DNA of 64,000 nucleotides, taken from positions 32,001 to 96,000 of the IMG/VR virus record IMGVR_UViG_3300032245_000795; one strand, given 5' to 3'. Within the stretch, counting starts at the first letter, position 1. Each line of letters begins with the position of its first letter. Below, piece by piece: positions 6,603 to 38,389 of this stretch. Under the pieces are notes generated by a model. That model saw nothing but the letters and a program-made list of their open reading frames with translations. It was not told the origin of the DNA and searched no databases. Source of the DNA: a virus. The translations under genes and the position numbers were made by a program.

Positions 6603-6611
6603 TGGTATACT
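6603..6611 (+). promoter_or_regulatory. extended -10 promoter (TGGTATACT), likely leaderless transcript
   Basis: Ends 8 nt before the ATG at 6619; no SD. Confidence 0.6.
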
Positions 6612-13745: not shown

Positions 13746-14299
13746 TGACAGAATCAACATCAACGCTAAATACTCCAGGGTTATGGGTAAACAAATATTT
13801 ACAAGAAAAAATTTATGCAAGTGCAGATATAGCAATGCCATTTTTTCCAACAGCGCCCAACACAATAGATGATTTAACCGAACAATGGGTAGTAATAAAT
13901 GATGAAAGACTCTCCTACCAAGGGGTTGTTGCTGTATATGATAGATTGATTAGAATGAGAAGATCTCCATTTCCACATATTAAATGCGAACAACTTCTTT
14001 ATTATTTTTATGCAACTCAAAACAATGTTACTAAAAGTATGATACAGGTACAAGAGGCAGTTTTAAGGCTTATGGACCGTGGAGACGAGTCTGCCGAAGA
14101 CATAAACACTTGGGCAAAAGGAAAAACCCTTGATGGAATGTCATGTAAGTTCTATTTTCATAATTTTAAGATATATCAATTAGAGGAAGTTAGGGATATA
14201 ATTGATTTTGGCACAGCCCGTACTTATGGCGGTAACAAGATAATTATTGACTACGACTACCATCAGATGCAAGACATTATAGACTCAGTAATCTCTTAA
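13745..14299 (+). CDS. tail terminator-like protein
   Basis: Directly upstream of the major tail protein gene; size fits. Confidence 0.45.
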   Translation: MTESTSTLNTPGLWVNKYLQEKIYASADIAMPFFPTAPNTIDDLTEQWVVINDERLSYQGVVAVYDRLIRMRRSPFPHIKCEQLLYYFYATQNNVTKSMIQVQEAVLRLMDRGDESAEDINTWAKGKTLDGMSCKFYFHNFKIYQLEEVRDIIDFGTARTYGGNKIIIDYDYHQMQDIIDSVIS

Positions 14300-14368
14300 A
14301 AAGGGTTGTATAATTAAGGTGAGGAAACAAGCCCTTTTAATCCAAAAGAAAAAAAAGAGGTGAAAAAT

Positions 14369-14989
14369 ATGGCATATACACGTGGTAGCAGCAACAATAT
14401 TATTGTTGGAGCAGCAGCCCTCTTCACACATGAAGACGGCGTACTCACAGACGAAGGACTTCCAGCATATGTAGCAGGAACATCATACAGAGAGACACTC
14501 TCAAACGATGCAGACTTCCGCAATGTTGGTTATACAATGAATGGTTTGGAAATTCAGTTCCAGCCAGATTTTGGTGAAGTAGCAGTAGACCAGGTACTTG
14601 ACGTTGCTAAGTTGTTTAAGCAAGGCATGCAGGTAAACCTAAATACTACATTCGCAGAATCAACACTAGAGAACCTATTGTTTGCACTAGCAGGCAAGGA
14701 TGGAGATCTAAATACAGTATCAGGAAACCCAACACTTAACCTTTCAGCAGGAGACATCGGCGAATGCCCAGTCGAACGTGGTTTGGTAGCAGTTGGTCCA
14801 GGAACTGGAGATTGTGCAATTGGAGATGAACTCGAAAGAGTTTACGTAGCATACCGTGCTCTTTCAATCGAAAGCGTAACAGTATCTGCAAAGAGAGATG
14901 AAGCGACAATGTTCGAAGTATCATTCCGTCTTCTTCCAAATGATGATGCGTCATACGGTAAGATCGTAGACCGCACTATCCCAGCATAA
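14369..14989 (+). CDS. major tail (tube) protein
   Basis: NVGYTMNGLEIQFQPDFGEVAVDQ...FAESTLENL; SD GAGGTG before ATG 14369; highly-expressed codons; terminator follows. Confidence 0.85.
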   Translation: MAYTRGSSNNIIVGAAALFTHEDGVLTDEGLPAYVAGTSYRETLSNDADFRNVGYTMNGLEIQFQPDFGEVAVDQVLDVAKLFKQGMQVNLNTTFAESTLENLLFALAGKDGDLNTVSGNPTLNLSAGDIGECPVERGLVAVGPGTGDCAIGDELERVYVAYRALSIESVTVSAKRDEATMFEVSFRLLPNDDASYGKIVDRTIPA

Positions 14990-15004: not shown

Positions 15005-15041
15005 GAGAGGCTCAATCCTTCGGGGTTGGGCCTTTCTGTTT
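15005..15041 (+). terminator. intrinsic terminator with a UUCG tetraloop
   Basis: GAGAGGCTCAATCC-TTCG-GGGTTGGGCCTTTC then TGTTT. Confidence 0.8.
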
Positions 15042-15049
15042 GGTATACT
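15041..15049 (+). promoter_or_regulatory. extended -10 promoter (TGGTATACT), leaderless start at 15056
   Basis: The last T of the -10 box is exactly 7 nt before ATG 15056; no SD. Confidence 0.65.
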
Positions 15050-15055
15050 TATATA

Positions 15056-15760
15056 ATGCCTACAGAAATATACAAAACCTCAATCATTGAACTCTTTGAT
15101 GGCACAGAAATTTACATTACTCCATTAAAAATAAAATATTTAAAGTTATTTTTAGATGAGTTTCAAAATGTAAAAGCATCAAAAAATGATGATGAAGCAA
15201 TGTTTTATCTTGCTAAGTGTGCAACTATTACTATGAGGCAATATTGCCCAAGTATAAAAAATCAAGAACAACTAGAAGATAATATTGATATGCCAACAAT
15301 TTATAAGTTGTTAGATTTTTCAGCAGGAATAAAGATAAATGAAAAATCTGAAGAGACAGTAAAATCTCAAGCAACAGAAAGTGGATCTTCATGGGATGAT
15401 CTAGATTTAGCAGAGTTAGAGGCAGAGGTGTTTTTGCTTGGTATATGGAAAGATTATGATGAACTAGAATCATCTATGTCAATGCCAGAAATAATGGCAA
15501 CACTTAAAGTAAAAAGAGAACTTGACTATTCTCAAAAAAAGTTTCTTGCTGCCATGCAAGGTGTTGATTTAGATAAGGCAAGCAACAAAGGCAATGCATG
15601 GGAAGAAATGAAAGCCAGGGTGTTTAGTGGTGGTCAAGCAGCAGACTCTAAAGATATTGTTGCTCTTCAAGGATACAATGCACAAAAAGCAGGGTTTGGA
15701 ATTGGTATGGGCTTAACCTATGAAAAATTAGACGAATCTGTACCGTCCAGCGTGGTATAA
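15056..15760 (+). CDS. tail assembly chaperone, long (G-T-like) form encoded in one frame
   Basis: The first ~100 aa are paralogous to 15790..16116, followed by a C-terminal WDDLDLAELEAEVFLLG domain; lies between the tail tube and TMP genes. Confidence 0.75.
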   Translation: MPTEIYKTSIIELFDGTEIYITPLKIKYLKLFLDEFQNVKASKNDDEAMFYLAKCATITMRQYCPSIKNQEQLEDNIDMPTIYKLLDFSAGIKINEKSEETVKSQATESGSSWDDLDLAELEAEVFLLGIWKDYDELESSMSMPEIMATLKVKRELDYSQKKFLAAMQGVDLDKASNKGNAWEEMKARVFSGGQAADSKDIVALQGYNAQKAGFGIGMGLTYEKLDESVPSSVV

Positions 15761-15761
15761 T
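15753..15761 (+). promoter_or_regulatory. extended -10 promoter (TGGTATAAT) overlapping the upstream stop codon
   Basis: Consensus match upstream of SD AAGGAGG of 15790. Confidence 0.6.
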
Positions 15762-15789
15762 TAATTGTTAACCTACAAGGAGGAAAACT

Positions 15790-16116
15790 ATGGCTAATAA
15801 GCCTTCAACCGATAGAACTATCAAGTTAATAGATGGAACAGAAATTGCAGTAAGACCACTTAAACTATCATTGCTTAGACCATTTATGTCTAAGTTTGCA
15901 TTGCTTTCAGCAGTCTCTGATGATAACGATAAGTCTATGGATATTCTTATTGATTGCGTACAAATTGCAATGAAACAATTCAAGCCAGAATTGGCAGAAA
16001 GTAGAGAGGTTCTAGAAGATAGCCTGGACCTTCCTACAGTTTACGAAATTATTGATGCAGCATCAGGTGTTCAGAACTCTGAGACAAGCGCAGTATTATC
16101 TTCGTTAACAAAATAA
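15790..16116 (+). CDS. tail assembly chaperone, short (G-like) form
   Basis: LIDGTEIAVRPLKL...LEDSLDLPTVYEIIDAASG; strong SD; immediately before the TMP gene. Confidence 0.75.
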   Translation: MANKPSTDRTIKLIDGTEIAVRPLKLSLLRPFMSKFALLSAVSDDNDKSMDILIDCVQIAMKQFKPELAESREVLEDSLDLPTVYEIIDAASGVQNSETSAVLSSLTK

Positions 16117-16137: not shown

Positions 16138-19100
16138 TTGGCAGATGTAAACTCTAATATAAATATTAATTTTGATACAACTGCCGCTCTTGCACAACTA
16201 CGTTCTTTACAGGCAGGCCTCAGCAGGTTTCATCAAACACTTGCTGAGGGCAACCTGGCTGCTGCAAATGCTCAAAAAGGTTTAAACGCACAACTTATAC
16301 AATCTGTTGGTGCTACAGGAAAATTCTCAGCAAGCCAAGTTAAAGTTGCTGGAAGCACACTAGCGTTCACGTCTGCATTAGAAAAAAATAAACTATCTCT
16401 TCGTGATTATTACAGATACACCATGGCAGCAGCAACTGCCAATACTCGTGTAATGGGGAAGGCATTTGCAGAAGAACGAGAGATTATAAATCGTGCTCGC
16501 AGAGATAGAGTAAAAGCCTTACAAGCACAATATATCCAGATGAATAAATCCAATGCTGGGTTTATGGATGCAATTAAAATTATGCCAAAAAGCCTTCAAA
16601 TGGCTAGTGGAAAGTTTACAGAACTTGGAACAAGAATTCAGTATGCTGCACAAAAACAACAGTTCTTAAATCAACTATTAAAACAAGGATCAACACAACT
16701 ATTAAACTTTGGTAAGAATACTCAGTGGGCTGGTCGCCAGTTGATGGTTGGTCTCACAATGCCACTTGCCTTGTTTGGATCTGCAGCAGCAAAAGCATTT
16801 AAAGAGTTTGACGCTGAAGTTGTTAAGTTCCGTCGTGTATATGGAAATGCATTTACAAATGATGCAGAGGTTAATGCAGCAGTTGAAAATATAAGAAAAT
16901 TATCAAATGAGTATGTAAAGTATGGAGTCTCTGTTACAAAGACTATGGAGATGGCTGCAACAGCAGCAGCAGCAGGCTTTGAAGGATCAGCACTTACAAC
17001 ACAGGTTGAAACAGCAACAAAGTTAGCAGTACTTGGCCAGATTGAGCAGCAGCAGGCACTTGAAACAACAATATCTTTGCAAACTGCATTTGGTCTTTCT
17101 AGTGAAGACCTTGCAAAGAAAATTAACTTTCTTAACGCAGTAGAAAACCAAACACTTTTATCTATTGAAGATTTAACTATTGCAATTCCAAAAGCAGCAC
17201 CAGTTATAAAGCAACTTGGTGGATCTGTTGAAGATTTAGCCTTCTTCCTTACAGCAATGAAAGAGGGTGGAATTAATGCATCAGAAGGTGCTAACGCACT
17301 TAAGTCTGGTCTTGCATCATTAATTAATCCATCTGACAAAGCAGCAAAGTTTCTTGGCAACTTAGGAATTAATGTTAAAGGACTTGTTGAAGCAAACAAG
17401 GGTGACATAAAAGGAATTGTTGTTGGATTTGCAAGAGCCCTTGATGAACTTGATCCACTTAATCGTGCAAGAGCAATTGAGCAGATGTTTGGTAAGTTCC
17501 AGTTTGCACGTCTATCAACATTATTTCAGAATGTAACTAAGGATGGATCTCAAGCATCAAGAGCATTTCAATTAGCAGGGGCATCAATAGAAGAGTTAGC
17601 AATCTTATCCGAAAGAGAAATGAAGAAGATAGAAGACTCAACTGGTGCTAAATTCCAGGCAGCATTAGAGAACCTTAAGCAAGAAATTATGCCTTTAGGA
17701 AAAGCATTTCTTGAGGCTTTAACACCAGTAGTTAAGTTTTTTTCAGGACTTCTTGAAAAGTTTAATGGTCTTGGAGATAATACAAAAAAGGTTATTGCAA
17801 TAACTGTTGCAGCAGTTGCAGGTCTTGGCCCAGTACTACTTATGACATTTGGTCTTCTAATGAATGGTGTTGCAAACGTTATTAAATTGTTTGCAATGCT
17901 TCGTGGAGGAATTGCTAAGTTAAACGGACAAACAGGTGTAATGGGTGCAGGCTTTAACTATATGACACAAGAGCAGATTGAAAATGCTGCATCTTCTGAA
18001 CAACTTCACCAAACACATTCAAGATTAATACAAGTTTTTAATGTTGAAAAAAGTTCTGTAAATGCTCTTGCTGCATCCTACAATTCATTAAGTACACAGA
18101 TGAGAGGCATGGCAACACAGAACCCCGCGTTATTTGCAGGTGGAGTTCGTGGTGCTAAAAGAGCAGTAAGCGGATTACCACCAGTTAAAAAGTATAGAGA
18201 AGGAGTACTGAGCGTACCAGGTCCAAAGGGTGCAGGAGATGTTGTTCCAGCAATGCTTTCTCCAGGAGAAGCAGTTATTCCTACAGAAACAACTAATAAA
18301 TATAGAGGTTTGATTTCTGCAATGTTCCAAGATAAAGTTCCAGGATTTATGGCTGGAAGACTTCCTGGAGGACCAGGCAGAGGAATACCTTTATCATCAG
18401 GCCCAGAAGCCTTTAGAAAAGCGCAGCAGGCACAATACAGAAGAGTAAACGATGCTCGTCAGGGATATTCTGAACCACATCCAGAAAAGAAAACAGGACC
18501 AACTTTTGTTGGAATGCCAAAGGGATCTCAAGAAGCGTCACAGTCTAGACAAATTTTAGATAAGATTTCAGATCAAGTTAAAATTGGAAAATTTGGATCT
18601 GTTCCACCAACAAACTTTGGAACAATGCTTCAATCATTTTCTGGAAGAAGTTTTCCTGCACGTGGAGTTGGCGGTGTATACAGAAAATCTAATGGACAGA
18701 TAGTAGTAGTAAAACCAACAATAGATGAAAAAACTGCATTGGCAGAAGTTCGTGCTACTCAAATTGCTAGAGAAGTTCATGGACTTGTATCTCCAAAGCA
18801 AACTATTAGAACAATGATGGATCCAACAGATCCAACAGGTCAAAGAAAGTTTATTGTGATTGAGTCCCCATATGATCCAAGAATAGCCTCTATGACTGGT
18901 AAGTTTTCAAAGTCTGACATGGTTAAGCAATTAGTTGCATCAACGCTAAGAGGAGACAAAGATTTACAAAAACCAAACTTGTCTGGAAATGTGTTAGCAG
19001 ATGTTGGAACTGCTGGAGTATTCGATAGGGCATCTGGCTTTAGAGATTTTGCTAAAGTTATGCCAAGCATGGAACAACAAGCAGTTGTAAATCTTCTTGG

Positions 19101-22100
19101 AGTTAAGGGTGGAGCAAAGAAGTTTTTTGCACAAGAAACATCTGGTGTAGCAGCATCTATGTCTCCAAAAGACTATGATTTAGCAATAAAGACAGAAATT
19201 TCTAAATCAATTCCAAGACTAGAAAAACTTCTTAAGACTTGGAATTTAAATCCAGAAGAAAAAATTGTTTATGGAAATATGCTACAAAGACTCAGAGATG
19301 GAGCAAAAACAGATTGGGCAGCATTACAGCCTATACATGCTCGTGCAGGAGAAGGAGTTGCTAAATTAGAATTAGGAAACTTTGAAAAATTCCAAAATGT
19401 TCCAGAGTCAAAAGCACAAGTTGAAAAACTTGTAGAGGGTTTATCAAAAGATGCAGCAGAACAATTGGAAAAGTTACCTAAAGAACAAAGAGATAGAGTG
19501 CTTGCTGCACTAGGAAAAGAAAAACCAGCACCAACACATATGAGCCAAGCAAGGCTAATGAAATTTGTAGAACAAAATATGGTTTACAAAGATGGTCTAT
19601 TCCATGATAAAAAATCTTTAGATGCTGGAAGTACAACATCTGGAAAAACTTATGAAGAAGTTATGAAGAAAGTTTTTTATCAGATGGGCCTTCAAGAAAA
19701 AGATGGTTCTTTTGTAAGCGATAAAAAATTAAATGTTCCATCTAAACTAAAGTCTGCAATGAGCACTGTAGACAAAGCAGGTGGAGGCTGGAGAACAAAC
19801 GTACCAAAAAGTTCATTGCTTTGGAAAGCCTTAGATGCAGAAGAGCAAAGTTTTAGAGCAGCAAATATGGCTGCAGGCAAAAACGATCCATTAAAAAATG
19901 TAAGAGAAAAACTTAAGTCTCTAGGTTATAATGAAAAACAAATTGCTACTGCGCTAAGATCTGAGTTATCGCATGTAGAAAAAACTGGAGAATCTGGAAG
20001 AGGTCCTGCAAAGTATTCAAAGGGATCAGCAATGTTCGACTTAAGACTACTAAATAACTACATGAATACAAAGACTAGACCTCAAAGTATTTTAGACTGG
20101 AACGCAAAAAATGGAAATGCTCTTGGATTAACAGCAACACAGATTAAAGAATTTCAAAAAGCAGCAAACTATATGAAACCTGGGGCACACCCAATAACAT
20201 TAGATGATATAAAATTAGTTCAAAAATCCGCACAACTTGATGTTTTAGCAGATGAATATCTAAAACAACAAAAGGTAAAGCCAAAGGGTTTTCCAAAACT
20301 AGGACAAGTTAATGCTTCTAAGGGGCTTTTGGCACTTCTTGATGACAGAATTGGAACAGGATACTACAAATCTTCAAAACCAATTTTTAATTTATCAAGC
20401 GGTGTAGATCAAAGTCAAAAGGTTTTAGTAGATCCAAATAACGAATTTAAAGTCGATACTAAGACTGGAAAAGTAACAAAGTTAACAAACGCTAATACAG
20501 GAGCAAAGCCTGCTGGAGCAGTTGCTAGTAGTGGAAGTTCAAGAGACAGAAGGACTACGACAGAAACACCAACACAAAGAGTTGCAACAAGAAGTCAACT
20601 TACAAGTTTCCGCAGAGGGTTTGGTAAAATTCCTGGATTCTCTATGCCTGGAAAAATCAAGGGAGACCCAAGACTAACAAACCCTACAGTAAAACAAGGA
20701 CAGTTAGCATTGCAGTTACGTGGCAAAGGATATAGCCAGGTAGAAATTGATAGAGCACTTAGAAGGTTTGCAGAAAAAGAATTAAAAAATAAAGAATCAC
20801 AGGTTCGTGCTGCTGAAAAATCAGCAAGAGCAGAAGCAGCAAGACAAAAAGAACAAGCAGCAATACAAAAAAAACAAACAGATGTTGCAAGAAAAGCATT
20901 TATAGAAAATGAGCGCAGATCACAACTAAATGCAGCACAAGCAAGAACATATGATGCTGCAGTAAAAGAAGATCAAAAGAGAACAATAAAAAATCAAAAA
21001 CAAACTGAAAAAGTAAATGCTAAACAAACAAGAATAGCACGTCAAGAAAAGGTTGGTAGATTCTCTGGCGGTGCATCTATGGCTCTTGGAACTGTTGGTA
21101 TGGGTCTTATGATGTCTGGGAATACAAATGCTGGCATGGCTGTATCAGGTTTGTCAGCCCTTGCAGGAATGGCCCCGATGCTTGCTGGTATGGGACCAGT
21201 AGGAGTAGCCCTGACTGCTGTAGCAGCAGTTGGTGGAGGGCTTTGGATGCTAGACAAGGCAGCAAAGAAAGCAGCAGAATCACAGTCTAGACAAGTTGAT
21301 GCAACAAGAGCAACAACAGAAAAAATGAAAACCATTGGAGAAATGAATGGCAAAGTTGGAGCATCTGAAATTTATGCAAGAAAAAGAAAAGAATCGGTAG
21401 CCAATAGATATTCTATTGGTTTTGAAAGAGGAAAAACCCAATATGGATCAGACTTTTTAAAAGAACAAGTTGGAAAAGATATGTTTTCTGGCATTATAGA
21501 AAGTTTAAAGTCTGGTTCTAAAAATGTTGCATCTCAGGTAGCAACAGAACTTGCTGGTTATATTTCTGATGGAATATTAACTGCACAGCAAGCAAACAGT
21601 ATTGCTGATCAGATTGGAATTGAGTTAGGCAATACTACAATTGGTGCAGATATTACTGGAAAACTACTAGAATTGGTCGGTCCAAATGGAGAAGATTTAT
21701 TAACAAATCCACTAGAAGTAAGAGTTAAAATAGTTAAAGAACAACAGAAAAATACTCAATTAGTTATGAGTGAGTTAGAAAAGTATTATAATTGGTCAGG
21801 TAAAAACAATAACGGTTTTGATGACAAGTCCGATGCTGCAAACGCTGCAGAAGTTTTTGCATCTCAGGCTGCAGCAGCAAATGTACAGGATTTAGAGTTT
21901 AATCAAGCGCAAATAGATTCTTTAAATCTTGAGTACGACAATAAAATAAAAATACTTGAAGCACAAAAAGCAACTACATCAGACAAAGCAAAGCAGTTAG
22001 AAATTCAAGGAAAAATTGATGCTGCTGAGAAAGATCGTATAACAGGAACAAAAAAATTACGAGAAAATAATAGAAAAATTATACAAGAACAAATGAAAGC

Positions 22101-25100
22101 CCTTAAGTTTGTAAAGACAAATCAAAAACAAGGTTCAGAGGCAAGTGTAGAAACTGCATACTTTGAAGCATTAAAAACTCAAGTTAGGGACAAGTACAAA
22201 GACGATCCAACACAAAATGCATTTGTAGATAAATTTTTTCAAGTTGCACAGAATGCAGGTAGCCAAGAAATAGAAGCAAAGATTATGACTGTTGTTGGTT
22301 CTGGTCAAATGCCAGTTACATCAGCAGTTAAGTTAATGGAAATGTTTGCTGGAGATGAAAAAGGACTTAATAAGATTCTTAATGTAACAACATCAATTGC
22401 AGATCCTGGAAAAGTAACAGAGTTCTTAAACTCTATTGAATTAATAACAGATCCCAATACAAAAAAAGAGATTATGGTAGAACTAACACAAAAGTCTCCA
22501 AAAGAAGCAGAAGGAATAATGTCTGCTTTTAATATGATGAAATTATTAAATCCAGAAATAAATATAGACTTCTTTTTTAAAGATGGTGGCGCAGCAGGAA
22601 TTGGAAAACTTAAGGAAATTGCAGACAAACTTGAAGAAGTTCAAAAAATAAAAGAGCCAATAACAACAAAGTTTTTGCTAGAGACAAAAGAAATTGGTGG
22701 GGTAAACCTAGAAGATCTTATTCCAATTATGGAAAAATACAAAAATCAACCAGATGTTATAAAAAAACAAGTTATTTCACAATATATTGTTATAAAAGAA
22801 ACACTTAATCCAGGAGAGATTGCAGCAGAAAAGAAAAGGCTTTTAGCAGGATATAAGGGAAATCCAAAGGGAGCCGAGCAGTATTCGGAGTACCTAAACT
22901 CTCCAGAAGGAACAAAATATGTTACAAATAAGGTTGTTGAAAATAAAATTGCACAAGCCATTAAGCCTGAGATAGAAGCACTAGAGGCAGCACGTCTTGA
23001 AGCAGAAAAACTAAAGGGAGATAAAGTTACTGACCCATTTGAATGGATGTTAGCAGCATTAAAGAATGTTCGCAACGCTGCAATAGATGCAAAGGGTGGA
23101 ATTGAAGAATTAAAAAGAGCACTTGCAAAAATTGGTCCAAAGGCTGTAGGAGATAAGTTCTTAGGAATAGATCAACAAATGATTGCTCAAGGACGTAATA
23201 AGCAGTTTATTGATTACGCTATGGGATTAACACCTGATGAGCAGGCAAAACTTTTCACTACCGCTGGACCTAAAAATAAAAGTGGTAAAAACAAGGGAAG
23301 AATACAAGACCCATATAACAAGGGCAAATTATTACCAGAGACAGCAAAACAAGGCGATGTAGTACTATCTAGCCTTGGAAAAACATATAATAGTTTCTTT
23401 GATGCAAAAGTCATTGGAGATTTCAATGCTGCAATGGGCAGATCTCTTTCATCAATAAAAGATCAAGAGAAGGCAAGAATTAAATTAGTTGCTGCTGGAT
23501 ATGATTCTGCAACAATAGAAGGTCTAATATCAGATGAATATACTACACAGTTAATTGCTTCAGGTAAAATAACAGAAGGTCAACTAAAGCAAAATGTTGA
23601 AATTTCTAAAGAACTTGCCAATAGACAAAAAATTAATAGCCTACTTTCTAGAGGTACATCAGAATTGCAAAGGCAAGCAGATATGTCAAGAGCAGCACAG
23701 GCTGCAAAGTTCTTACGTAGTCAAGGTGTTTCAGAAGATGGTGTGAGGGCAGCCCTTGCAGATGCAGGTTCATTGTCAGAAGCAATTGCTGCTATGGATC
23801 AATATAACTCTTCTGCTGGGCTTGCTGCTGGTACACTTAAAACCATTGTTGATGGACTTAACGCTATAAAGGCAAACTCAAATATAGAATTAATTCTTAA
23901 ATTTACAACAGCAAATGTTTCAGGGCAGATTCAGCAAGGAGCAGAAGCAGCCAAAAAGATAATGGACTCAAAGAGAACAGTCTACAATAATCTAACTGCT
24001 GACAAATTAAAAAATGCAACTTCGGCATATACAGATTCAAGTAAAGCCCCTCAACAAGTTGGTAAGATTGCAACAGCAACTGTAGATGCAAGGTATAAAG
24101 CAACAAATACTCCAATACCAGTGATATCAGAAGGCGCAACAATAAAGAGTCTTCAAAAAGCAATGGAAACTAAGGCTAAAGAAATAGATCTTTCATCTTC
24201 AAATCTTAGCAAGGCTAAATCTGCAGCGTCTGCAGTAAGAGATCAAATTTCAAATGCAGAAAACGCTTTGCAGACAGCACTAGATAATGCTAATGCAGGC
24301 GTTGATAAAGCAATTAAGGGAGTTCAAGATGTCATTAGAGGTTATGAAAATCAGATCAAGTCAATAGAAAAAACTATAAAGTCCAGAGAAGATGAAATAA
24401 AGAAAAGATTTACAGATAAAATAGAGGCATTTAATAAAGAAAACCAAATGCTAAGTAATGACCTTGCAATAATGGACAAGGCTGCAGAAGATATTAATGA
24501 GAAGTATGATAAGCAAGTAGAAGCCTTGCAGGAAGTAAACAAATTAAATCAAGAAATTATTGATGCACAGGGACAGCAGTTAGACCTGGCTGATGCTCTT
24601 TCTCAAGGTGATATCGCAGCAGCAGCAAGAGTTGCAAATGAGATGTCAGCATCTTATGCAAACAATCAAGCAGACACAATAATGCAGGGTATTGAACTTG
24701 CCAGAACTAATGATTTGTCAGCCTTAACTGGTGCAGAAAGCGGACTAACTGCAGATGCTATTTCAGAAAGACAATTTGCTATAAGTCAAGAAATTTATAA
24801 ACTAGAAACAGATCCTGCAAGATTGGCAATTGAAGCAGAAATACTAGCACTAAATGAAAGTGCTCTTGCAGTACAAGAATTAATTGCTGCAAAACAAGAA
24901 GAGATTGATCAAATTGAGGCTGGAAGAGCAAATATTTTAGCAGGTGTAGAGGCAGCCCATGCAGCAAACCTAAAGGCTTTGAATGATTCTTTAGTTCCAC
25001 TTGATGAGGCAGTAAAGAAAAATGAAGGAATATTAAAAAAGTTAGAAGATGAAGAAGAAGCATTGTCAGCACAAAAAGGATATCTTGAAGCAATTGCAGA

Positions 25101-28100
25101 TGAAGCAGTTGATATTGATAACACTACTGGAATGACCCTTGATGATTGGGTAGACACAGAAGACAAAGTAAAATCAATTGAAGAATTAGCAGCAGCATAT
25201 GCTCTTTCAACACTTGCAGCCCAAGCAGCAGTTGCAGCAGCAAGTACATCCTGGGGTGAAATTTTAAATTCCATTAATAAAATTCCTGATAGTATTGAAA
25301 CAAAATTAATAGTTGAGAAGATTGAGAATATAACACAAAATATTAAAAAAACATATACTGATGATGGTAGCGCAGCATCTGCAGCAGCAGCAGCAACTGC
25401 TGCAACTGCACAAGCAGAAGCAAAAGCAAAGGCCATTGCTGCAGCACTAAGAAAATTAACATCTGGACAAGCCTTAACAGCAGAAGAAAAGGCCCTGCTT
25501 TCAATAAACGGAGATGCAGATACATCAGCAGCAGACAAAGCAGTTAAAGATGCAGCAGATGTAAAGGCTAAGGCAATTGCAGATGCTCTAAGAAGATTAA
25601 ATAGCGGTCAATTGTTAACATCACAAGAAAGAGAACTTCTTGGTATGGCACCTGCTACAGACATGTATGATCCAAATGATCCATCTCACAAGGGTTCTTT
25701 TGAAACAGGTTGGTCATTAAATTCATGGGTTCATGCAATGGGCAAAGAATCAGCAGCACCCATACTAAAGAGCATGGGCTACTGGGCAGATGGTGGAGTT
25801 GTATATAGAAAAGCAGGAAGTCCTAGCCCAGAGTTTAAGGCAAAGGGAACAGATACTGTTCCAGCAATGCTAACTCCTGGAGAGTTTGTAATTAATAAGG
25901 CTGCAGTAAAAAAGTACGGACCAAAATTCTTTAAAATACTTAATGACAAAAAGTATCCAAAAAAGACTTCAGCAACAACTCCAACAGAAGTACTTGACAT
26001 AATAAGAAACCTTGGTTATTCAGTACCAGTTAAACCAACTTCTGCTTACGATTCTAACAATCAACCTACTGGAAGTGCAACTGGAAGATACTGGGGAGAG
26101 TTAGAAAGACTTTACGAAAGTTCTCCAATTGGTTTTGATGGCAAAGGAAAGCCAATACTTAACACTACAGGTAAAGATCCTTGGGGTGGTACAGAGATCC
26201 CAGGCCTTCCATTTAATGGAACAGTTCCACAATTTTCAGACTACTGGCATCAATTAGCAGAACAACCACAAAAGTTTAGTGGGCCTGCAATGGGTATAGA
26301 CAAACCTGTGGACCGCTATGCAGGATCTGGCGCATCTATGGGTGGTATTGGTAACGGAGCATACGGCTTGACTGGCCTACAGATGCTTTCTAGAGGCGGT
26401 ATGGTTAATCCATTAATGATGTCTGAAGGCGGTTCAGTGCCTTGGTATAAAAAGGCAGGAAATTTCCTAGTAGAAGCAGTTAAGGAAACTGGAAGATCTA
26501 TTGACTGGTTAACTGGAATGTATACAGCAGGACAAACTGGACAAAGAGATCCTATGATGTTCAGCAAAGACAATAAAGTTCTACTTAAGAATATCAATGC
26601 AGCAGTAGATGCTGGGTACGGCTCAGAAGCAACTAAAGTTTTGGCAACCAAAACTGCTATGAGCGGAGTAAATGTAGGATCACTTTTTCTTGGTGGGGCA
26701 TTAGGAAGCGCAACAGCAAGAGGTGCAGTTGGTGCATACGGAATATCAAAAGGAATTCCAGCACTTGAAACACTCTTGCCAACAGGATCTTTGTCTTATG
26801 CTACAAAAACAGGATTAGGGGCTGCATCTAACTTAGGATCTAGTACATATTTAAAGACTACAAACCCATTTACTCCAAAAACCACAGTATATGCCAAGGG
26901 GCCTGGAGGAATAGAAGATATCCCATTTCTTGATAAGACCAGAAAAGCAAGATTCTTGGAATATGCTAAGGGACTTAATAATAAAGATGCCAACTATTTA
27001 TCTCCAGATACTATAGCAGGAATTAAAAAAGTTGAAGCAGACGTAAAGAAAAGATTTGATGAAATTGAAGAAATAAAAAATGGAACACTTAATGGTAATC
27101 CATTGCCCGATCCAGAGAGAACCCTAGGATACTGGACACGTTATAACACAGACGATTTAATGCAAATTGCATTGGCAAAAAAATATAATATTCCACCTAT
27201 TAGTCAAGATTATTTAGCAGAGTATGCAAATATGGGATTAACTGCTTTCTATGATAAAAATTGGGCAGAGATTCATACAGCACTTGGTAGACAAACACTT
27301 GGTAGAGAGTTTGTTGGATACAGAGGTCTTAGCCACAAAGACCTTGCTGATATTGTTGGTTATAAAGAAGTAAACAAATTAGAAGATTTTACAGGAAAGG
27401 TTATAGGTAAAGAATCTGCATACCTCGGTAGCAGGGGATACGGACCAACACCTGGAGCCACACTTAAGCCTAACTGGGAAGAACTTTTAGCAGGAAGAGA
27501 CGCAAGAATTGCACCGTACGACTTTATAAATAATAAAGATCTTTTTGATTTAGAACCAGGAATAGGGGGAGTAGGAAATGCCTGGGTACCAGATGTTGCT
27601 AAATCATTTACAGAAAACCTTGATTGGGCAAAAAGAATAACAACAAATAATGATACTGGAGGAGGAGGTGTCTCTGCAATTGCAAAGGTTAACTTTGGTT
27701 CAGATGTTTTGGGGATTGACAGTATAACAAAATTAGGACTTGGTGGTTCACATGCAGACCCAACTCTTACAGAGCCATTTGTTTCTGCCTTTACTGAATT
27801 TATTCTTAAAAAGGTAACTCCTATGGCTCACAGAATTCCAGATGATACTGGGGAATTTATAACTAATGACTATGGTACCAAATGGGTTAATGGACCAGGA
27901 TATTCAAGATTAATAGATGAGTATGAATTTGATGCAGTAAGAACTTTACCTAAACCATATATAATTCCAGAAACTTTTCCTAACACAACAACGGCAAGCA
28001 TTGATAATTTAACCTTAGCAGCAAAATCACAAGCAATAGCGGATGCTATTAAAAAACAAGGTCTTCAAAATGCAGCAAAGGCAGAGGGTATGGCAAAAAG

Positions 28101-28407
28101 ATATGGAATGTCATCTGGTGGAGTAGTTCCTAAATATTTTGCTGCTGGTGGATACGCCTCTGGAACAGACATAGTACCAGCAATGCTAACTCCAGGAGAA
28201 TTTGTAATGAGTAAGTATGCTGTTGAAGCACACGGTGCAGATACTATGAAGGCAATTAATAATGGATCTTCCGTTGGTGACTCAGTGTATAATTATAGTA
28301 TCAGTGTAAATGTAAAGTCTGATTCAAACCCAGATGAAATTGCAAGAGCAGTAATGACTCAAATAAAGAGTATTGATTCACAAAAGATTAGAGGAGTTAG
28401 AATATAA
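16138..28407 (+). CDS. tape measure protein (TP901-type core) with inserted enzymatic cargo domains
   Basis: TTG start with SD GAGGTG; TP901-like core (AMKEGGINASEGANALKSGL); long Ala/Lys/Glu helical regions and hydrophobic segments; three PAML(S/T)PGE motifs. Confidence 0.92.
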   Translation: MADVNSNININFDTTAALAQLRSLQAGLSRFHQTLAEGNLAAANAQKGLNAQLIQSVGATGKFSASQVKVAGSTLAFTSALEKNKLSLRDYYRYTMAAATANTRVMGKAFAEEREIINRARRDRVKALQAQYIQMNKSNAGFMDAIKIMPKSLQMASGKFTELGTRIQYAAQKQQFLNQLLKQGSTQLLNFGKNTQWAGRQLMVGLTMPLALFGSAAAKAFKEFDAEVVKFRRVYGNAFTNDAEVNAAVENIRKLSNEYVKYGVSVTKTMEMAATAAAAGFEGSALTTQVETATKLAVLGQIEQQQALETTISLQTAFGLSSEDLAKKINFLNAVENQTLLSIEDLTIAIPKAAPVIKQLGGSVEDLAFFLTAMKEGGINASEGANALKSGLASLINPSDKAAKFLGNLGINVKGLVEANKGDIKGIVVGFARALDELDPLNRARAIEQMFGKFQFARLSTLFQNVTKDGSQASRAFQLAGASIEELAILSEREMKKIEDSTGAKFQAALENLKQEIMPLGKAFLEALTPVVKFFSGLLEKFNGLGDNTKKVIAITVAAVAGLGPVLLMTFGLLMNGVANVIKLFAMLRGGIAKLNGQTGVMGAGFNYMTQEQIENAASSEQLHQTHSRLIQVFNVEKSSVNALAASYNSLSTQMRGMATQNPALFAGGVRGAKRAVSGLPPVKKYREGVLSVPGPKGAGDVVPAMLSPGEAVIPTETTNKYRGLISAMFQDKVPGFMAGRLPGGPGRGIPLSSGPEAFRKAQQAQYRRVNDARQGYSEPHPEKKTGPTFVGMPKGSQEASQSRQILDKISDQVKIGKFGSVPPTNFGTMLQSFSGRSFPARGVGGVYRKSNGQIVVVKPTIDEKTALAEVRATQIAREVHGLVSPKQTIRTMMDPTDPTGQRKFIVIESPYDPRIASMTGKFSKSDMVKQLVASTLRGDKDLQKPNLSGNVLADVGTAGVFDRASGFRDFAKVMPSMEQQAVVNLLGVKGGAKKFFAQETSGVAASMSPKDYDLAIKTEISKSIPRLEKLLKTWNLNPEEKIVYGNMLQRLRDGAKTDWAALQPIHARAGEGVAKLELGNFEKFQNVPESKAQVEKLVEGLSKDAAEQLEKLPKEQRDRVLAALGKEKPAPTHMSQARLMKFVEQNMVYKDGLFHDKKSLDAGSTTSGKTYEEVMKKVFYQMGLQEKDGSFVSDKKLNVPSKLKSAMSTVDKAGGGWRTNVPKSSLLWKALDAEEQSFRAANMAAGKNDPLKNVREKLKSLGYNEKQIATALRSELSHVEKTGESGRGPAKYSKGSAMFDLRLLNNYMNTKTRPQSILDWNAKNGNALGLTATQIKEFQKAANYMKPGAHPITLDDIKLVQKSAQLDVLADEYLKQQKVKPKGFPKLGQVNASKGLLALLDDRIGTGYYKSSKPIFNLSSGVDQSQKVLVDPNNEFKVDTKTGKVTKLTNANTGAKPAGAVASSGSSRDRRTTTETPTQRVATRSQLTSFRRGFGKIPGFSMPGKIKGDPRLTNPTVKQGQLALQLRGKGYSQVEIDRALRRFAEKELKNKESQVRAAEKSARAEAARQKEQAAIQKKQTDVARKAFIENERRSQLNAAQARTYDAAVKEDQKRTIKNQKQTEKVNAKQTRIARQEKVGRFSGGASMALGTVGMGLMMSGNTNAGMAVSGLSALAGMAPMLAGMGPVGVALTAVAAVGGGLWMLDKAAKKAAESQSRQVDATRATTEKMKTIGEMNGKVGASEIYARKRKESVANRYSIGFERGKTQYGSDFLKEQVGKDMFSGIIESLKSGSKNVASQVATELAGYISDGILTAQQANSIADQIGIELGNTTIGADITGKLLELVGPNGEDLLTNPLEVRVKIVKEQQKNTQLVMSELEKYYNWSGKNNNGFDDKSDAANAAEVFASQAAAANVQDLEFNQAQIDSLNLEYDNKIKILEAQKATTSDKAKQLEIQGKIDAAEKDRITGTKKLRENNRKIIQEQMKALKFVKTNQKQGSEASVETAYFEALKTQVRDKYKDDPTQNAFVDKFFQVAQNAGSQEIEAKIMTVVGSGQMPVTSAVKLMEMFAGDEKGLNKILNVTTSIADPGKVTEFLNSIELITDPNTKKEIMVELTQKSPKEAEGIMSAFNMMKLLNPEINIDFFFKDGGAAGIGKLKEIADKLEEVQKIKEPITTKFLLETKEIGGVNLEDLIPIMEKYKNQPDVIKKQVISQYIVIKETLNPGEIAAEKKRLLAGYKGNPKGAEQYSEYLNSPEGTKYVTNKVVENKIAQAIKPEIEALEAARLEAEKLKGDKVTDPFEWMLAALKNVRNAAIDAKGGIEELKRALAKIGPKAVGDKFLGIDQQMIAQGRNKQFIDYAMGLTPDEQAKLFTTAGPKNKSGKNKGRIQDPYNKGKLLPETAKQGDVVLSSLGKTYNSFFDAKVIGDFNAAMGRSLSSIKDQEKARIKLVAAGYDSATIEGLISDEYTTQLIASGKITEGQLKQNVEISKELANRQKINSLLSRGTSELQRQADMSRAAQAAKFLRSQGVSEDGVRAALADAGSLSEAIAAMDQYNSSAGLAAGTLKTIVDGLNAIKANSNIELILKFTTANVSGQIQQGAEAAKKIMDSKRTVYNNLTADKLKNATSAYTDSSKAPQQVGKIATATVDARYKATNTPIPVISEGATIKSLQKAMETKAKEIDLSSSNLSKAKSAASAVRDQISNAENALQTALDNANAGVDKAIKGVQDVIRGYENQIKSIEKTIKSREDEIKKRFTDKIEAFNKENQMLSNDLAIMDKAAEDINEKYDKQVEALQEVNKLNQEIIDAQGQQLDLADALSQGDIAAAARVANEMSASYANNQADTIMQGIELARTNDLSALTGAESGLTADAISERQFAISQEIYKLETDPARLAIEAEILALNESALAVQELIAAKQEEIDQIEAGRANILAGVEAAHAANLKALNDSLVPLDEAVKKNEGILKKLEDEEEALSAQKGYLEAIADEAVDIDNTTGMTLDDWVDTEDKVKSIEELAAAYALSTLAAQAAVAAASTSWGEILNSINKIPDSIETKLIVEKIENITQNIKKTYTDDGSAASAAAAATAATAQAEAKAKAIAAALRKLTSGQALTAEEKALLSINGDADTSAADKAVKDAADVKAKAIADALRRLNSGQLLTSQERELLGMAPATDMYDPNDPSHKGSFETGWSLNSWVHAMGKESAAPILKSMGYWADGGVVYRKAGSPSPEFKAKGTDTVPAMLTPGEFVINKAAVKKYGPKFFKILNDKKYPKKTSATTPTEVLDIIRNLGYSVPVKPTSAYDSNNQPTGSATGRYWGELERLYESSPIGFDGKGKPILNTTGKDPWGGTEIPGLPFNGTVPQFSDYWHQLAEQPQKFSGPAMGIDKPVDRYAGSGASMGGIGNGAYGLTGLQMLSRGGMVNPLMMSEGGSVPWYKKAGNFLVEAVKETGRSIDWLTGMYTAGQTGQRDPMMFSKDNKVLLKNINAAVDAGYGSEATKVLATKTAMSGVNVGSLFLGGALGSATARGAVGAYGISKGIPALETLLPTGSLSYATKTGLGAASNLGSSTYLKTTNPFTPKTTVYAKGPGGIEDIPFLDKTRKARFLEYAKGLNNKDANYLSPDTIAGIKKVEADVKKRFDEIEEIKNGTLNGNPLPDPERTLGYWTRYNTDDLMQIALAKKYNIPPISQDYLAEYANMGLTAFYDKNWAEIHTALGRQTLGREFVGYRGLSHKDLADIVGYKEVNKLEDFTGKVIGKESAYLGSRGYGPTPGATLKPNWEELLAGRDARIAPYDFINNKDLFDLEPGIGGVGNAWVPDVAKSFTENLDWAKRITTNNDTGGGGVSAIAKVNFGSDVLGIDSITKLGLGGSHADPTLTEPFVSAFTEFILKKVTPMAHRIPDDTGEFITNDYGTKWVNGPGYSRLIDEYEFDAVRTLPKPYIIPETFPNTTTASIDNLTLAAKSQAIADAIKKQGLQNAAKAEGMAKRYGMSSGGVVPKYFAAGGYASGTDIVPAMLTPGEFVMSKYAVEAHGADTMKAINNGSSVGDSVYNYSISVNVKSDSNPDEIARAVMTQIKSIDSQKIRGVRI
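25420..25650 (+). repeat. tandem ~29-aa repeat inside the TMP
   Basis: AKAKAIAAALRKLTSGQALTAEEKALLSI versus VKAKAIADALRRLNSGQLLTSQERELLGM. Confidence 0.75.
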
Positions 28408-33367: not shown

Positions 33368-33864
33368 TGGCAGTTGACGCAACAGCAAATCAGGCTACAG
33401 CAACACAAAAGATTGATCCAAAAGAAGCAATAAAGGTTGCATCACCATCTTTGCTTCAATTAAGCAATCCTCCTTTGTCTAAAGAGGCTATGGTTGAGAT
33501 TGGTTTTCAGGACATTGGAGGCCATGAATTAATAAATATATCAAGATCTGATGCAATAAATGGTCAGGACATTATTTATAGCATTGTCAAAAACTTAAAA
33601 AATGTATTACTTGAATACAACTCTAATAATATTATTAAACTTCAGGGAACATCAGACAATTATTTTAAAAATTTTCCAATAAGACTTGAGCAAAAGTTGC
33701 CAAAAGATGGCACAGGACCTAATAAAGAGATAGTGTATATTGAAGAATCTACAGGAAACCTTATAATAAACTTAGTAAACCTTGAAAAAGGAGAGCAAGT
33801 AGATATAGAAATAATCAACCAGGGAGAAACTTTTGATGATACAATTAGGGTTAGTGAGGTGTAG
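33367..33864 (+). CDS. minor tail protein (hypothetical)
   Basis: Coupled ORF (GTG start) in the tail module. Confidence 0.55.
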   Translation: MAVDATANQATATQKIDPKEAIKVASPSLLQLSNPPLSKEAMVEIGFQDIGGHELINISRSDAINGQDIIYSIVKNLKNVLLEYNSNNIIKLQGTSDNYFKNFPIRLEQKLPKDGTGPNKEIVYIEESTGNLIINLVNLEKGEQVDIEIINQGETFDDTIRVSEV

Positions 33865-33866
33865 AT

Positions 33867-35024
33867 ATGATAACAAGTGACGGACAAAAAATTTTAGCAA
33901 AGTATCTTGTGGGGCAGGCCCCTGCTTATGCTTCATACATTGCTATTGGCTGCGGAGCAAAGCCTGTTGCTTCAGACCATATTTTTTCTACTGAGGAAAA
34001 TAACTCTATAAAAAATAAAACAAATTTAGATTTTGAAATGTTTCGTGTACCAATAACATCAAGAGGGTATGTTAATGAGGACAATGTTAATAAGATTGTT
34101 TTTACAGCAGAACTTCCAACATCAGAAAGATATGAAATAACAGAGGTAGGTCTTTGGTCGGCAGGTTCAAATCCAACAGCAGGATCAAATGATAGTCGAA
34201 CAATTTTTTCATTCAGCGATGCTGAAAATTGGCAATATCATGGAGCGGGTCAACCAGCCTCAATCCCATCCTACGAAGAGGAACTACACTCAGGAAATAA
34301 TGTTATAAATAAAACAGAAATTGCTTTTCAAACAAATGCAGATAATCCAATCTTTACTACTACAAAACGTGAGGCAAGAGGAGAAAGATGTAGATTTTTA
34401 AATAATATGATTGCTATACGTGGAGACATGTCAACGATTAGCGTTGAACAAAATGGAAAACTTCAAATTGACCCAGCGTCTAAGCATATACATCTAACAG
34501 GAGCATCGTTAGATTTTGATAAGGCATCGCCTAAAGATGAGTTAAGACTAGCATTTTCTTTAATAAATAAAGATGGCCAGTCTGATGTCCAGCCAGATGA
34601 AATAAGAATAATGTTAGAGTTTGCTCAAGGAGATCTTCATAACACTGGCCTTGATGCAACTAACACTAGCCAGTATGCAAGATTTGAAACAGTTATAAAA
34701 GATTCTGATTTAGATGTAGACTTTGCTACAGGAAGATATTTTGTATCTGTTAAAAAGTTTGAAGAGTTAATTAAGAGTGATGGATTTACTTGGAATGTTG
34801 TTGATGTAGTAAAATTTTATGTATCAGTAATAAAAGATGAAGTAGTCTCTGACGATTATTATGTTTGTCTTGATGCCTTGAGATTAGAAAATACAACATC
34901 TTCAAACCCTCTTTATGGACTAACTGGGTACTCAGTTATTAAAAACACAAACTCAAAACCAATTCTAAAGGCTCCAAATAGCACAAATCACATTGAGTTT
35001 AGATTTGGTCTGGATGTTTTGTAA
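33867..35024 (+). CDS. minor tail/baseplate protein
   Basis: N-terminal MITSDG..ILAKYL..YIAIGCG...EITEVGLW, typical of tail-collar/baseplate proteins. Confidence 0.6.
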   Translation: MITSDGQKILAKYLVGQAPAYASYIAIGCGAKPVASDHIFSTEENNSIKNKTNLDFEMFRVPITSRGYVNEDNVNKIVFTAELPTSERYEITEVGLWSAGSNPTAGSNDSRTIFSFSDAENWQYHGAGQPASIPSYEEELHSGNNVINKTEIAFQTNADNPIFTTTKREARGERCRFLNNMIAIRGDMSTISVEQNGKLQIDPASKHIHLTGASLDFDKASPKDELRLAFSLINKDGQSDVQPDEIRIMLEFAQGDLHNTGLDATNTSQYARFETVIKDSDLDVDFATGRYFVSVKKFEELIKSDGFTWNVVDVVKFYVSVIKDEVVSDDYYVCLDALRLENTTSSNPLYGLTGYSVIKNTNSKPILKAPNSTNHIEFRFGLDVL

Positions 35025-35506
35025 TGGCTGACCAAGGAATCAAAAAGGCTATAATTAAAAAAGAAGATTTTCCACCATTGAACGGAGAATCACAAAACTA
35101 TTTAGTTAGATATCGTGTGGTATCAGAAGACAAAAATAGAACATCTCATTGGTCTCAATACTACGAGGTTAATGTTGTTCCTGAGATAGATAGAGAAAGA
35201 ATTGTGGATGGAGAAGCATCGCCAGAGCCCTGGATTTCACACTCTTTGGTATTAAGTGAAAATAAACAAATAATTAATGTTGTTTGGACTCCTCCAATAA
35301 ACCTAAAGTCTGATTTTGATTTATATGTTAAATGGGGTGCAGATGATTTTAAATATGTTGCGTCTATTCAAACATCGTCATACACTATTCAGACTTTATC
35401 AGGATATGCTACAGTTGAGTTTGCTCTTCAAGTTCCAACATTTCCAAAAAAGAGATTTACCAAGGCTACTCTTTTTGAGTCTGATCCATTAAGCCTAGTG
35501 GTATAA
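35024..35506 (+). CDS. minor tail protein, FN3-like
   Basis: YLVRYRVVSEDKNRTSHWS and NVVWTPP are FN3-like strands. Confidence 0.5.
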   Translation: MADQGIKKAIIKKEDFPPLNGESQNYLVRYRVVSEDKNRTSHWSQYYEVNVVPEIDRERIVDGEASPEPWISHSLVLSENKQIINVVWTPPINLKSDFDLYVKWGADDFKYVASIQTSSYTIQTLSGYATVEFALQVPTFPKKRFTKATLFESDPLSLVV

Positions 35507-35507
35507 T
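35499..35507 (+). promoter_or_regulatory. extended -10 promoter (TGGTATAAT), leaderless start at 35514
   Basis: Exactly 7 nt before the ATG; no SD. Confidence 0.6.
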
Positions 35508-35513
35508 AGTATT

Positions 35514-35957
35514 ATGGCACAAATTCCTCTACCTGAGCGTGGTCAACCACTAGATGTAGCATATATTTCTAGACTGGCTCAAGAAATAAATAATTTATCA
35601 AGAGATGTTTCAACAGCAAGGTATGATTATGTAACTATTGATACAAAAGATTCTGGTCAGCAAAATAAAAAAATGTCAGAAGTTAGAGTTTTAGGAGTTA
35701 TTAAAAAGTTACCAGCAGGTAAAACAGTTACCGCTGCAGAAGAAATTGGTTTTACTCATTCTTTTAATGGTGAGTTTAAGTTTGCTCCAATTGTAACTGC
35801 TACAGCAATAAATGTAGGAGGCGGCACTGCTGGAGGAAATGTTACTCTAATATTAAAAGACCCAACAACTTCTGGAGTTGAAGGAACTGTAAGATTTAAT
35901 GAATCTGGAACTGCTACCGTAAATGTTAACCTTATTATTATTGGCGTACCTAACTAA
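35514..35957 (+). CDS. tail tip/fibre-like protein (H-type lectin-like C-terminus)
   Basis: F..EFKFAPIVTAT ... VNLIIIG pattern seen at the C-terminus of fibre proteins. Confidence 0.5.
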   Translation: MAQIPLPERGQPLDVAYISRLAQEINNLSRDVSTARYDYVTIDTKDSGQQNKKMSEVRVLGVIKKLPAGKTVTAAEEIGFTHSFNGEFKFAPIVTATAINVGGGTAGGNVTLILKDPTTSGVEGTVRFNESGTATVNVNLIIIGVPN

Positions 35958-36148
35958 TGCTGAAATGTAAAAAATGTAATGGAAGAATGTTTCTTGATAG
36001 ACAATACAGTACCGTTGGTCACCTTGAAACATATTGTATGGCTTGCGGATCAAGAGATTTTTTTAATCCACCAACAAGTTCTGCGGAGGGTTTATGGCTA
36101 TTAAAAAAGGAAGTATCGAGAGCGAAGGCTACAATGTCCTACCTGTAA
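35957..36148 (+). CDS. small zinc-ribbon protein
   Basis: CKKC...CMAC. Confidence 0.65.
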   Translation: MLKCKKCNGRMFLDRQYSTVGHLETYCMACGSRDFFNPPTSSAEGLWLLKKEVSRAKATMSYL

Positions 36149-36636
36149 TACCAGGAAATAAAAAAGTTTGGTTTTTAAATGGAGACCTTGTAAGAATTCA
36201 CCATTTAAATAAATCTAATGGGATTATGTCTGTTTATAATATTACAAAAGATCAAATTGAAAGTTGTTTAATTAGTGACTTTAAAAAGAAACGTGAAAGA
36301 GCATACACCGTTAAAGAGACTGCTGATTTAGTTAATCGTCATAAAAAGTATATGCCATCACTAATGAGACGAGGAGTCATTCCTTTCCCCACGGGATCTC
36401 AAAAAGGTGGAGCAAGAGGATTTCAAGTAAGATCATATTACTCAGAATCCCAAGTAAGAGAGATACGTGATATACTTGCTACATACCATATTGGTAGACC
36501 AAGAAAAGATAATTTAATAACAAACGATATCACCCCAAGCAAACAAGAGTTGACACGAAGAATGGGCGATGGTATACTTACATATACGAGAACTGAAGAT
36601 GGACGATTCATTCCTATCTGGTCTGAATCTATTTAA
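36094..36636 (+). CDS. MerR/excisionase-like HTH DNA-binding protein
   Basis: AYTVKETADLVNRH...RRGVIP...RSYYSESQV. Confidence 0.65.
   Translation: MAIKKGSIESEGYNVLPVIPGNKKVWFLNGDLVRIHHLNKSNGIMSVYNITKDQIESCLISDFKKKRERAYTVKETADLVNRHKKYMPSLMRRGVIPFPTGSQKGGARGFQVRSYYSESQVREIRDILATYHIGRPRKDNLITNDITPSKQELTRRMGDGILTYTRTEDGRFIPIWSESI
36550..36578 (+). promoter_or_regulatory. sigma70-type promoter inside the HTH gene, driving the replication genes
   Basis: TTGACA-N17-TATACT with an extended TG. Confidence 0.7.
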
Positions 36637-36649
36637 CGAAGGGTATGAA

Positions 36650-38377: not shown

Positions 38378-38389
38378 TTATAATATGAT

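Follow-up and report, generated by a model that had tools for sequence, protein, structure and literature searches.

We analysed a stretch of 64,000 nucleotides (positions 32,001 to 96,000 of the IMG/VR virus record IMGVR_UViG_3300032245_000795; hereafter the window) and studied the organization of its tail assembly chaperone locus. In nearly all long-tailed phages the short chaperone G and the longer G-T protein are produced by a translational frameshift, which is among the most conserved recoding events. The locus of the window is quite likely a hard-wired, two-gene version of this lambda-type system. The T domain, which in related phages is reached only by a -1 slip near the end of G, is joined in frame to a G domain, so that the gene at 15056–15760 would make only the long G-T protein. 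The short form would be supplied by a second, paralogous G gene (15790–16116) located between the fused gene and the tape measure gene, and the high-G, low-G-T ratio would probably be set at initiation and not by frameshifting.

The two-gene chaperone locus

The order of the genes (major tail protein, long gene, short gene, tape measure protein) corresponds to the tail chaperone position of long-tailed phages. The features of the locus are listed below; Braelyn and Circinus are annotated Streptomyces phages, L091 is an environmental relative, and AF2 stands for AlphaFold2.

14369–14989, + strand: major tail protein (MTP) gene, with matches to phrog_2175 (E 1e-30) and phrog_885 ("major tail protein"), synteny with the annotated genes of Braelyn and Circinus, and alignment A3.
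15005–15036, + strand: GC-rich hairpin and, reaching to about 15047, a T-rich run; a terminator-like element between the MTP gene and the fused chaperone gene.
15041–15049, + strand: P1, extended -10-like box TGGTATACT, 6 nt upstream of the long-gene ATG, in a leaderless layout.
15056–15760, + strand: long (fused G-T) gene, 234 amino acids (aa), one open frame from ATG 15056 to TAA 15758–15760.
15056–15355, + strand: predicted G domain of the long gene, residues 1–100, from paralogy with the short gene, phrog_10504 and the AF2 model compared with YqbN.
15356–15391, + strand: junction or linker of the long gene, residues 101–112, equivalent to the frameshift region of relatives and here read in frame (alignment A1 and conceptual -1 products).
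15392–15760, + strand: T domain of the long gene, residues 113–234 and the stop codon, from phrog_10474, matches to the -1-frame T open reading frames (ORFs) of Braelyn, Circinus and L091, and a dN/dS of 0.12.
15753–15761, + strand: P2, extended -10-like box TGGTATAAT, overlapping the long-gene stop codon, 28 nt upstream of the short-gene ATG.
15777–15783, + strand: Shine-Dalgarno sequence AAGGAGG of the short gene, 6 nt upstream of ATG 15790 and ~15 nt past P2.
15790–16116, + strand: short (G-only) chaperone gene, 108 aa, from paralogy, phrog_10504, the AF2 model, a BFVD match and a dN/dS of 0.18.
16138–28407, + strand: tape measure protein (TMP) gene, 4089 aa, with a TTG start after AAGAGGTG, from synteny with the annotated TMP genes of Braelyn and Circinus.

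The first-pass annotation, made by a model from the letters and an ORF list, had proposed that the first ~100 aa of the long protein align with the whole short protein. BLASTP comparison bore this out: residues 11–98 of the long protein and 11–100 of the short one share 39% identity and 71% positives over 90 aa (E 3e-22). Both N-termini match phrog_10504 (E 4.6e-19 and 6.6e-16), and the motifs DGTE, PLK, C..MKQ/MRQ and LED..D.PT.Y are common to the two G domains. Neither protein has a match in Pfam. The long gene was also said to continue in frame into an extra domain, and its residues 130–187 indeed match phrog_10474 (E 1.5e-15). Finally, the same annotation placed the TMP gene directly after the short gene with no T-frame ORF, which agrees with our data: the TMP ORF begins 21 nt past the end of the short gene, the ORF list of the window has no overlapping + strand ORF of at least 40 aa at this end, and no overlapping ORF follows either G domain in that list.

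Split G and T genes in related phages

Among sequenced phages, the closest relatives are about 130 Streptomyces phages of Stanwilliamsviridae and a few Rhodococcus phages. In the Stanwilliamsviridae records G and T are given as separate genes, which several records label as tail assembly chaperones, and no frameshift is annotated. In Braelyn (gp56/gp57) and Circinus (gp34/gp35) the proteins matching phrog_10504 and phrog_10474 are encoded by adjacent genes between MTP and TMP. T lies in the -1 frame relative to G and is open from 55–60 nt upstream of the G stop, and the conserved motif W-D/E-E-L...FLLG(I/M)WK begins upstream of both the G stop and the annotated TTG start of T. In the split relatives the T ORF overlaps the end of G and has no start codon of its own ahead of the conserved motif. 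The annotated TTG start itself sits within the FLLG(I/M)WK motif in both phages (Braelyn, locus L001, 3285–3375; Circinus, locus L002, 3297–3390).

The environmental relative L091 has the slippery heptamer C_CCA_AAA 12 nt upstream of its G stop, and Circinus has C_CCA_AAT at the homologous proline codon near the G end; the related C_CCA_AAG is listed as highly shift-prone (PMC5009743). Judging from the sequences, a -1 frameshift has probably gone unannotated in the Stanwilliamsviridae records.

With a -1 slip made in silico, L091 and Circinus yield conceptual products of 239 and 220 aa, respectively, and both can be aligned over their full length, including the junction, with the 234-aa fused ORF of the window. 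Alignment with frameshifted chaperones of related actinophages had been suggested as a check, and since the conceptual products proved colinear with the fused ORF, the long gene can be regarded as a G-T protein encoded in a single frame. A lack of homology between the C-terminal domain and T domains had been named beforehand as a result that would overturn the proposal; this domain was found to be homologous to the -1-frame T ORFs of the relatives, which in L091 and Circinus lie behind slippery heptamers. At the long-gene junction itself no X_XXY_YYZ heptamer was found, and G and T share one reading frame. A search of the long gene for a retained slippery site or a reverse frameshift revealed none that is conserved.

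Distribution of the fused arrangement

Three scans of IMG/VR yielded 166 related loci, in which stop-to-stop ORFs were classed by BLASTP against G, T, MTP and TMP queries, the first 300 residues of TMP serving as its marker. The layout MTP, fused G-T, G, TMP was revealed in 146 complete loci and, cut by contig ends, in 20 more, so the two-gene arrangement is clade-wide, a point that the first-pass annotation had left to be checked. The split layout was found in the census only in L091 and the two Streptomyces records (Braelyn and Circinus). The clade comprises 107 different long proteins and 92 different short ones. The long proteins are 46–96% identical to that of the window, and relatives at about 46–60% identity still keep the fused G-T, G, TMP layout. 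The related contigs carry more than 100 different metagenome ids.

A HMMER pass over 1.84 billion cluster representatives revealed 360 relatives. Only about a dozen of them span the junction in one ORF, and the fused form is thus a minority state in a mostly split family. The other relatives in this library are mostly T-only ORFs (80–140 aa, some with upstream overlap) or G-only ORFs.

Start signals and codon usage of the two genes

The hairpin upstream of the fused gene in the window comprises 14 pairs, seven of them G-C, with a UUCG loop, and is followed by the T-rich run. By direct stem search, a stem of at least 6 bp was found upstream of the fused gene in all 72 unique upstream regions, with 45 distinct stem-loop sequences and visible compensatory changes; at least six T are present in the 10 nt after the stem in 64 of these regions. 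The direct search was used in place of a first automated terminator test (RNAfold, at least six T in 11 nt), which only 18 of the 72 regions passed because the T-run is interrupted and the fold was over-extended.

The long gene had been described as leaderless, with its ATG 7 nt after TATACT behind a terminator. The box and the hairpin are located as described, with 6 nt between P1 and the ATG, whose A is the seventh base past the hexamer; leaderless initiation itself we infer from this layout and from the lack of a Shine-Dalgarno sequence. A TGnTAnAAT or TATACT box is present 6–9 nt upstream of the fused-gene start in all relatives listed. Not even a 4-nt Shine-Dalgarno match was found upstream of the fused gene in any of 68 unique regions, and the gene starts with ATG in 65 of them and with GTG in three. 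In actinobacteria, functional leaderless starts at ATG or GTG are frequent.

The short gene, in agreement with the first-pass annotation, has its own -10 box (P2, of the form TGnTATAAT) and the sequence AAGGAGG. Shine-Dalgarno matches of at least 4 nt precede it in 84 of 84 unique regions, 75 of which have a 6-nt match. A -10 hexamer is located 19–28 nt upstream of its start in 83 of the 84, in 80 cases preceded by TGn.

The sequence TGGTATAMT occurs seven times in the window, always on the + strand, compared with 1.35 copies expected:

6603–6611, 15041–15049, 15753–15761, 35499–35507, 36570–36578, 51643–51651 and 54416–54424, + strand: copies of TGGTATA(A/C)T, from the motif count.

Three of these copies are located 6–7 nt upstream of an ATG (genes at 6619, 15056 and 35514), and the phage therefore seems to use leaderless starts repeatedly. 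The whole set suggests a group of extended -10 promoters, several of which would drive leaderless genes.

Codon usage also differs between the two genes. With the capsid and tail tube genes of the window as reference, the short gene reaches a codon adaptation index of 0.534 and the long gene one of 0.396, the 35 other ORFs having a median of 0.498 and a minimum of 0.357. The index of the short gene exceeds that of the long gene in 104 of 108 unique pairs. The idea that separate initiation modes control the ratio of the two proteins thus fits the contrast in Shine-Dalgarno sequences (0 of 68 vs 84 of 84), the spacing of the -10 boxes and the codon usage; the ratio itself is what we infer from these features.

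RNA libraries were available as assembled contigs of relatives at a likeness of at least 85%; such contigs are unable to show starts or levels, and their depths were not used. Within this limit, none of them starts at 15056. Downstream of P2, contigs from two studies have their first base at 15772 (directly after the adapter) and 15782, which may be taken as a weak hint.

Predicted fold and selection

In the AF2 model of the long protein, residues 1–93 superimpose on YqbN (3klu_A), which we take to be an XkdN-type chaperone, with Z 5.4 and a root-mean-square deviation (rmsd) of 4.0 over 84 residues. For the model of the short protein (mean predicted local distance difference test score 74.7) the top two of 48,161 PDB representatives were YqbN (3klu_A; Z 5.8, rmsd 4.8, 85 residues aligned) and the HK97 tail assembly chaperone (2ob9_B; Z 4.7, rmsd 4.4, 84 residues aligned), the Z values being low in both cases. 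The best BFVD match to the short model is named "Tail assembly chaperone" (E 5e-7, template modelling score 0.77), as are many weaker matches. When the full-length long model was compared with PDB by Foldseek, nothing was found at E 0.001 or better, and the HK97 chaperone ranked 35th (E 3.3). At these low scores the models would be compatible with a chaperone fold for G, the fold predicted for the two G domains being the same.

The second-ranked BFVD match, A0A9E7LT63, is a viral protein of 215 aa whose first ~100 residues match the short G model (E 8.8e-6); this may be a further case of G-T fusion, or a frameshift product annotated as such in a deposited phage.

Median dN/dS values are 0.23 for the G domain of the long gene, 0.12 for the T domain and 0.18 for the short gene, with dS near saturation; judged by these values all three parts are under purifying selection. 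The predicted complex of the tail tube protein with the T domain received a score of 0.00 in a run made without controls, which speaks neither for nor against binding.

Proposed mechanism and points that weigh against it

We suppose that transcription from the MTP gene would largely stop at the hairpin. The G-T gene, lying 6 nt past an extended -10 box and lacking a Shine-Dalgarno sequence, would then be expressed mainly from a leaderless message, or translated weakly on read-through RNA. The G gene would be transcribed from its own extended -10 box with a leader of ~20 nt and a consensus Shine-Dalgarno sequence, and would also be present on transcripts from P1. The promoters, transcript starts and product ratio in this scheme are putative and are read from the nucleotide sequence. 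By analogy with lambda, G would coat the tape measure protein and T would recruit the tail tube protein, and neither chaperone would be part of the virion. The hairpin, the contrast in start signals and the codon usage fit an abundant G and a scarce G-T.

Several observations weigh against this interpretation. In absolute terms the structural similarity to solved chaperones is low (Z < 6). At the expected slip site Braelyn has C_CCG_GAA, which is not a canonical heptamer; frameshifting in the Streptomyces relatives, whose records do not annotate it, is therefore deduced from the layout of the frames. One RNA-library contig (14507–15163) bridges the hairpin, which means that termination there is incomplete or that DNA was carried over. 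Leaderless messages can be translated efficiently in actinobacteria, so that "leaderless" need not mean "scarce". Finally, the two G domains of one genome are only 29–49% identical (median 40%) among the clade members, as against identical G domains in lambda, and may not be interchangeable.

Origin of the second G gene and alternative explanations

The proposal that frameshifting was replaced by gene duplication was supported: there are two genes and no sign of recoding. Duplication is not proven against acquisition of the second gene, given the root of the tree. A quick maximum-likelihood tree was built from 95 G domains (101 columns, midpoint root, outgroup branches of 0.6–0.8). One branch sets off the long-gene G domains (Shimodaira-Hasegawa approximate likelihood ratio test, SH-aLRT, 80) and another the short genes (94), from which it follows that the split between the two copies predates the diversification of the fused clade. 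From the sequences, the second G gene may have arisen by tandem duplication, or a related G gene may have been acquired. In the latter case the second G would have come by recombination with a related frameshifting phage, after which the resident G-T was fused, or the reverse, the present function being the same. We regard this history as conceivable but rather doubtful. It is favored by the grouping of the L091 G protein with the short genes and of the Streptomyces G proteins with the long-gene G domains (SH-aLRT 87 each), and by the 45% identity of the short protein to L091 G (alignment A2); the small alignment, the long outgroup branches and the midpoint root detract from this grouping, and an intermediate layout was not found among the 166 loci.

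Hard-wiring may also have uncoupled the two G domains, so that the G domain of G-T recognizes one nucleation site on TMP and the abundant short G coats the rest, the stoichiometry resulting from leaderless vs Shine-Dalgarno starts and two promoters. We offer this extension of the two-gene interpretation tentatively and consider it somewhat improbable. If it is true, the near-universal frameshift would serve only to set the ratio, and escape from it would allow chaperones to specialize in phages with very long tails.

A stronger version, which appears unlikely to us, assigns the two proteins distinct roles: the G part of G-T would bind one special TMP site and nucleate the tube, the short G would be a distinct partner coating the rest or another segment, and binding specificity would outweigh the expression ratio. 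Such subfunctionalization would agree with the low identity of the two G domains within a genome, with the unusual length of TMP (4089 aa), and with the fact that the long and short G domains, both under purifying selection, are on their own sides of the tree branch clade-wide, which means that the copies have evolved apart for the entire history of the clade. However, the predicted fold and the four shared motifs are kept in both, and the conserved Shine-Dalgarno sequence and the contrast in codon usage point to a difference in amount. This version is compatible with the two-gene ratio mechanism and does not exclude it.

It is highly improbable that the long gene still yields both forms, by a -1 slip or by proteolysis, with the short gene as an accessory. 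In favor of this, a stop codon closes the -1 frame of the long gene within ~7 codons after a GAAAAAT run close to the junction; against it, the junction lacks an X_XXY_YYZ heptamer, the A-run is not conserved (INEKS, INKKS and VNGEV in relatives), and the short gene is intact and has a strong Shine-Dalgarno sequence in every complete locus. An assembly indel fusing G and T, a conceivable error in a virus record assembled from a metagenome and one of the outcomes named beforehand as fatal to the two-gene proposal, is ruled out by the census, since the layout recurs in 163 of 166 related loci, the fusion is kept in the 107 distinct long proteins and across the more than 100 metagenome ids, and an indel would leave the second G gene unexplained.

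Comparison with known systems

In phage lambda gpG and gpGT are produced by programmed -1 frameshifting (Levin 1993; Xu, Hendrix and Duda 2004, 2013, 2014, reviewed in PMC5009743), and their ratio, about 30:1, is crucial (PMC5009743). In lambda and in the window alike, the chaperones are encoded between the tail tube and tape measure genes and have short and long forms with a G-type N-terminal domain, the long form carrying the T extension; a low long-to-short ratio is likewise expected here. Unlike lambda, the locus of the window has neither an overlapping frame nor a slippery site; it consists of two genes whose G domains are only ~40% identical, and control of transcription and initiation would take the place of recoding in setting the ratio.

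Some T4-like phages are described as having one short chaperone gene and one longer fused gene without frameshifting (PMC10274946, citing Vladimirov, Gautam and Davidson 2022, Virology 566:9); the content of the 2022 paper is taken here from citing papers, whose descriptions differ. Given these phages, the two-gene idea is not new. As far as these descriptions go, the pair of a short and a fused chaperone gene is common to both systems, whereas the T4-like phages are contractile-tailed phages of Proteobacteria with unrelated sequences, and the phage of the window is of the long-tailed, non-contractile type and related to Streptomyces phages. On the same basis, the clade of the window differs in having a close frameshifting relative and a conserved contrast between the leaderless layout and the Shine-Dalgarno start.

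Stanwilliamsviridae and L091 share with the window homologous G (phrog_10504) and T (phrog_10474) and the order MTP, G, T, TMP; they differ in having a single G gene, with T in the -1 frame overlapping its end. Among other actinobacteriophages, the Microbacterium phages of cluster EA also depart from the frameshift rule, two chaperone ORFs being reportedly expressed without an evident frameshift (PMC7302621). Compared by description, these are two separate ORFs and not a fused G-T gene with a duplicated G.

The present case adds a clade of the siphovirus type that is related to actinophages and has well over a hundred members, a close relative in which the slippery heptamer is still present at the homologous codon, and a conserved difference in regulation, which suggests how the ratio is maintained. 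Together with its frameshifting relatives, this clade provides a natural experiment on the purpose of the frameshift, i.e., setting the ratio, and points to other ways of setting it (leaderless vs Shine-Dalgarno start, promoter placement and codon usage). A practical consequence for annotation is that gene callers and frameshift predictors have to allow for fused G-T genes accompanied by a free G gene.

Surrounding genes and source of the record

The source record is a 115-kb IMG/VR virus rated complete by CheckV; the window has a G+C content of ~36%, and every gene in it is on one strand. For the MTP gene the ORF list gives a GTG start at 14360, and the conserved M-A-Y start corresponds to position 14369. 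L091 contains two tandem MTP genes (774–1454 and 1590–2537), the second with an insertion of ~90 residues after the N-terminal segment.

The TMP of the window is about twice as long as those of the Streptomyces relatives (~2100 aa; Braelyn TMP, 33863–40174). By the usual rule of ~1.5 Å of tail per TMP residue, 4089 aa would give a tail ~600 nm long.

Position 14335, 25–34 nt upstream of the MTP start, is the first base of RNA-library contigs from two different studies, in one case directly after the adapter. This position is located on the 3' side of the inverted repeat AAAGGG...CCCTTT (14299–14337), which encloses TATAAT at 14309–14314, and it could be a transcript end or a processing end.

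The sequencing runs holding parts of the stretch are from freshwater and lake metagenomes of 15 studies. A gene of the WhiB family was found at 63650–63823 of the window (95650–95823 of the record; 42.7 bits, above the Pfam cut-off), which suggests an actinobacterial host despite the G+C content of 36%.

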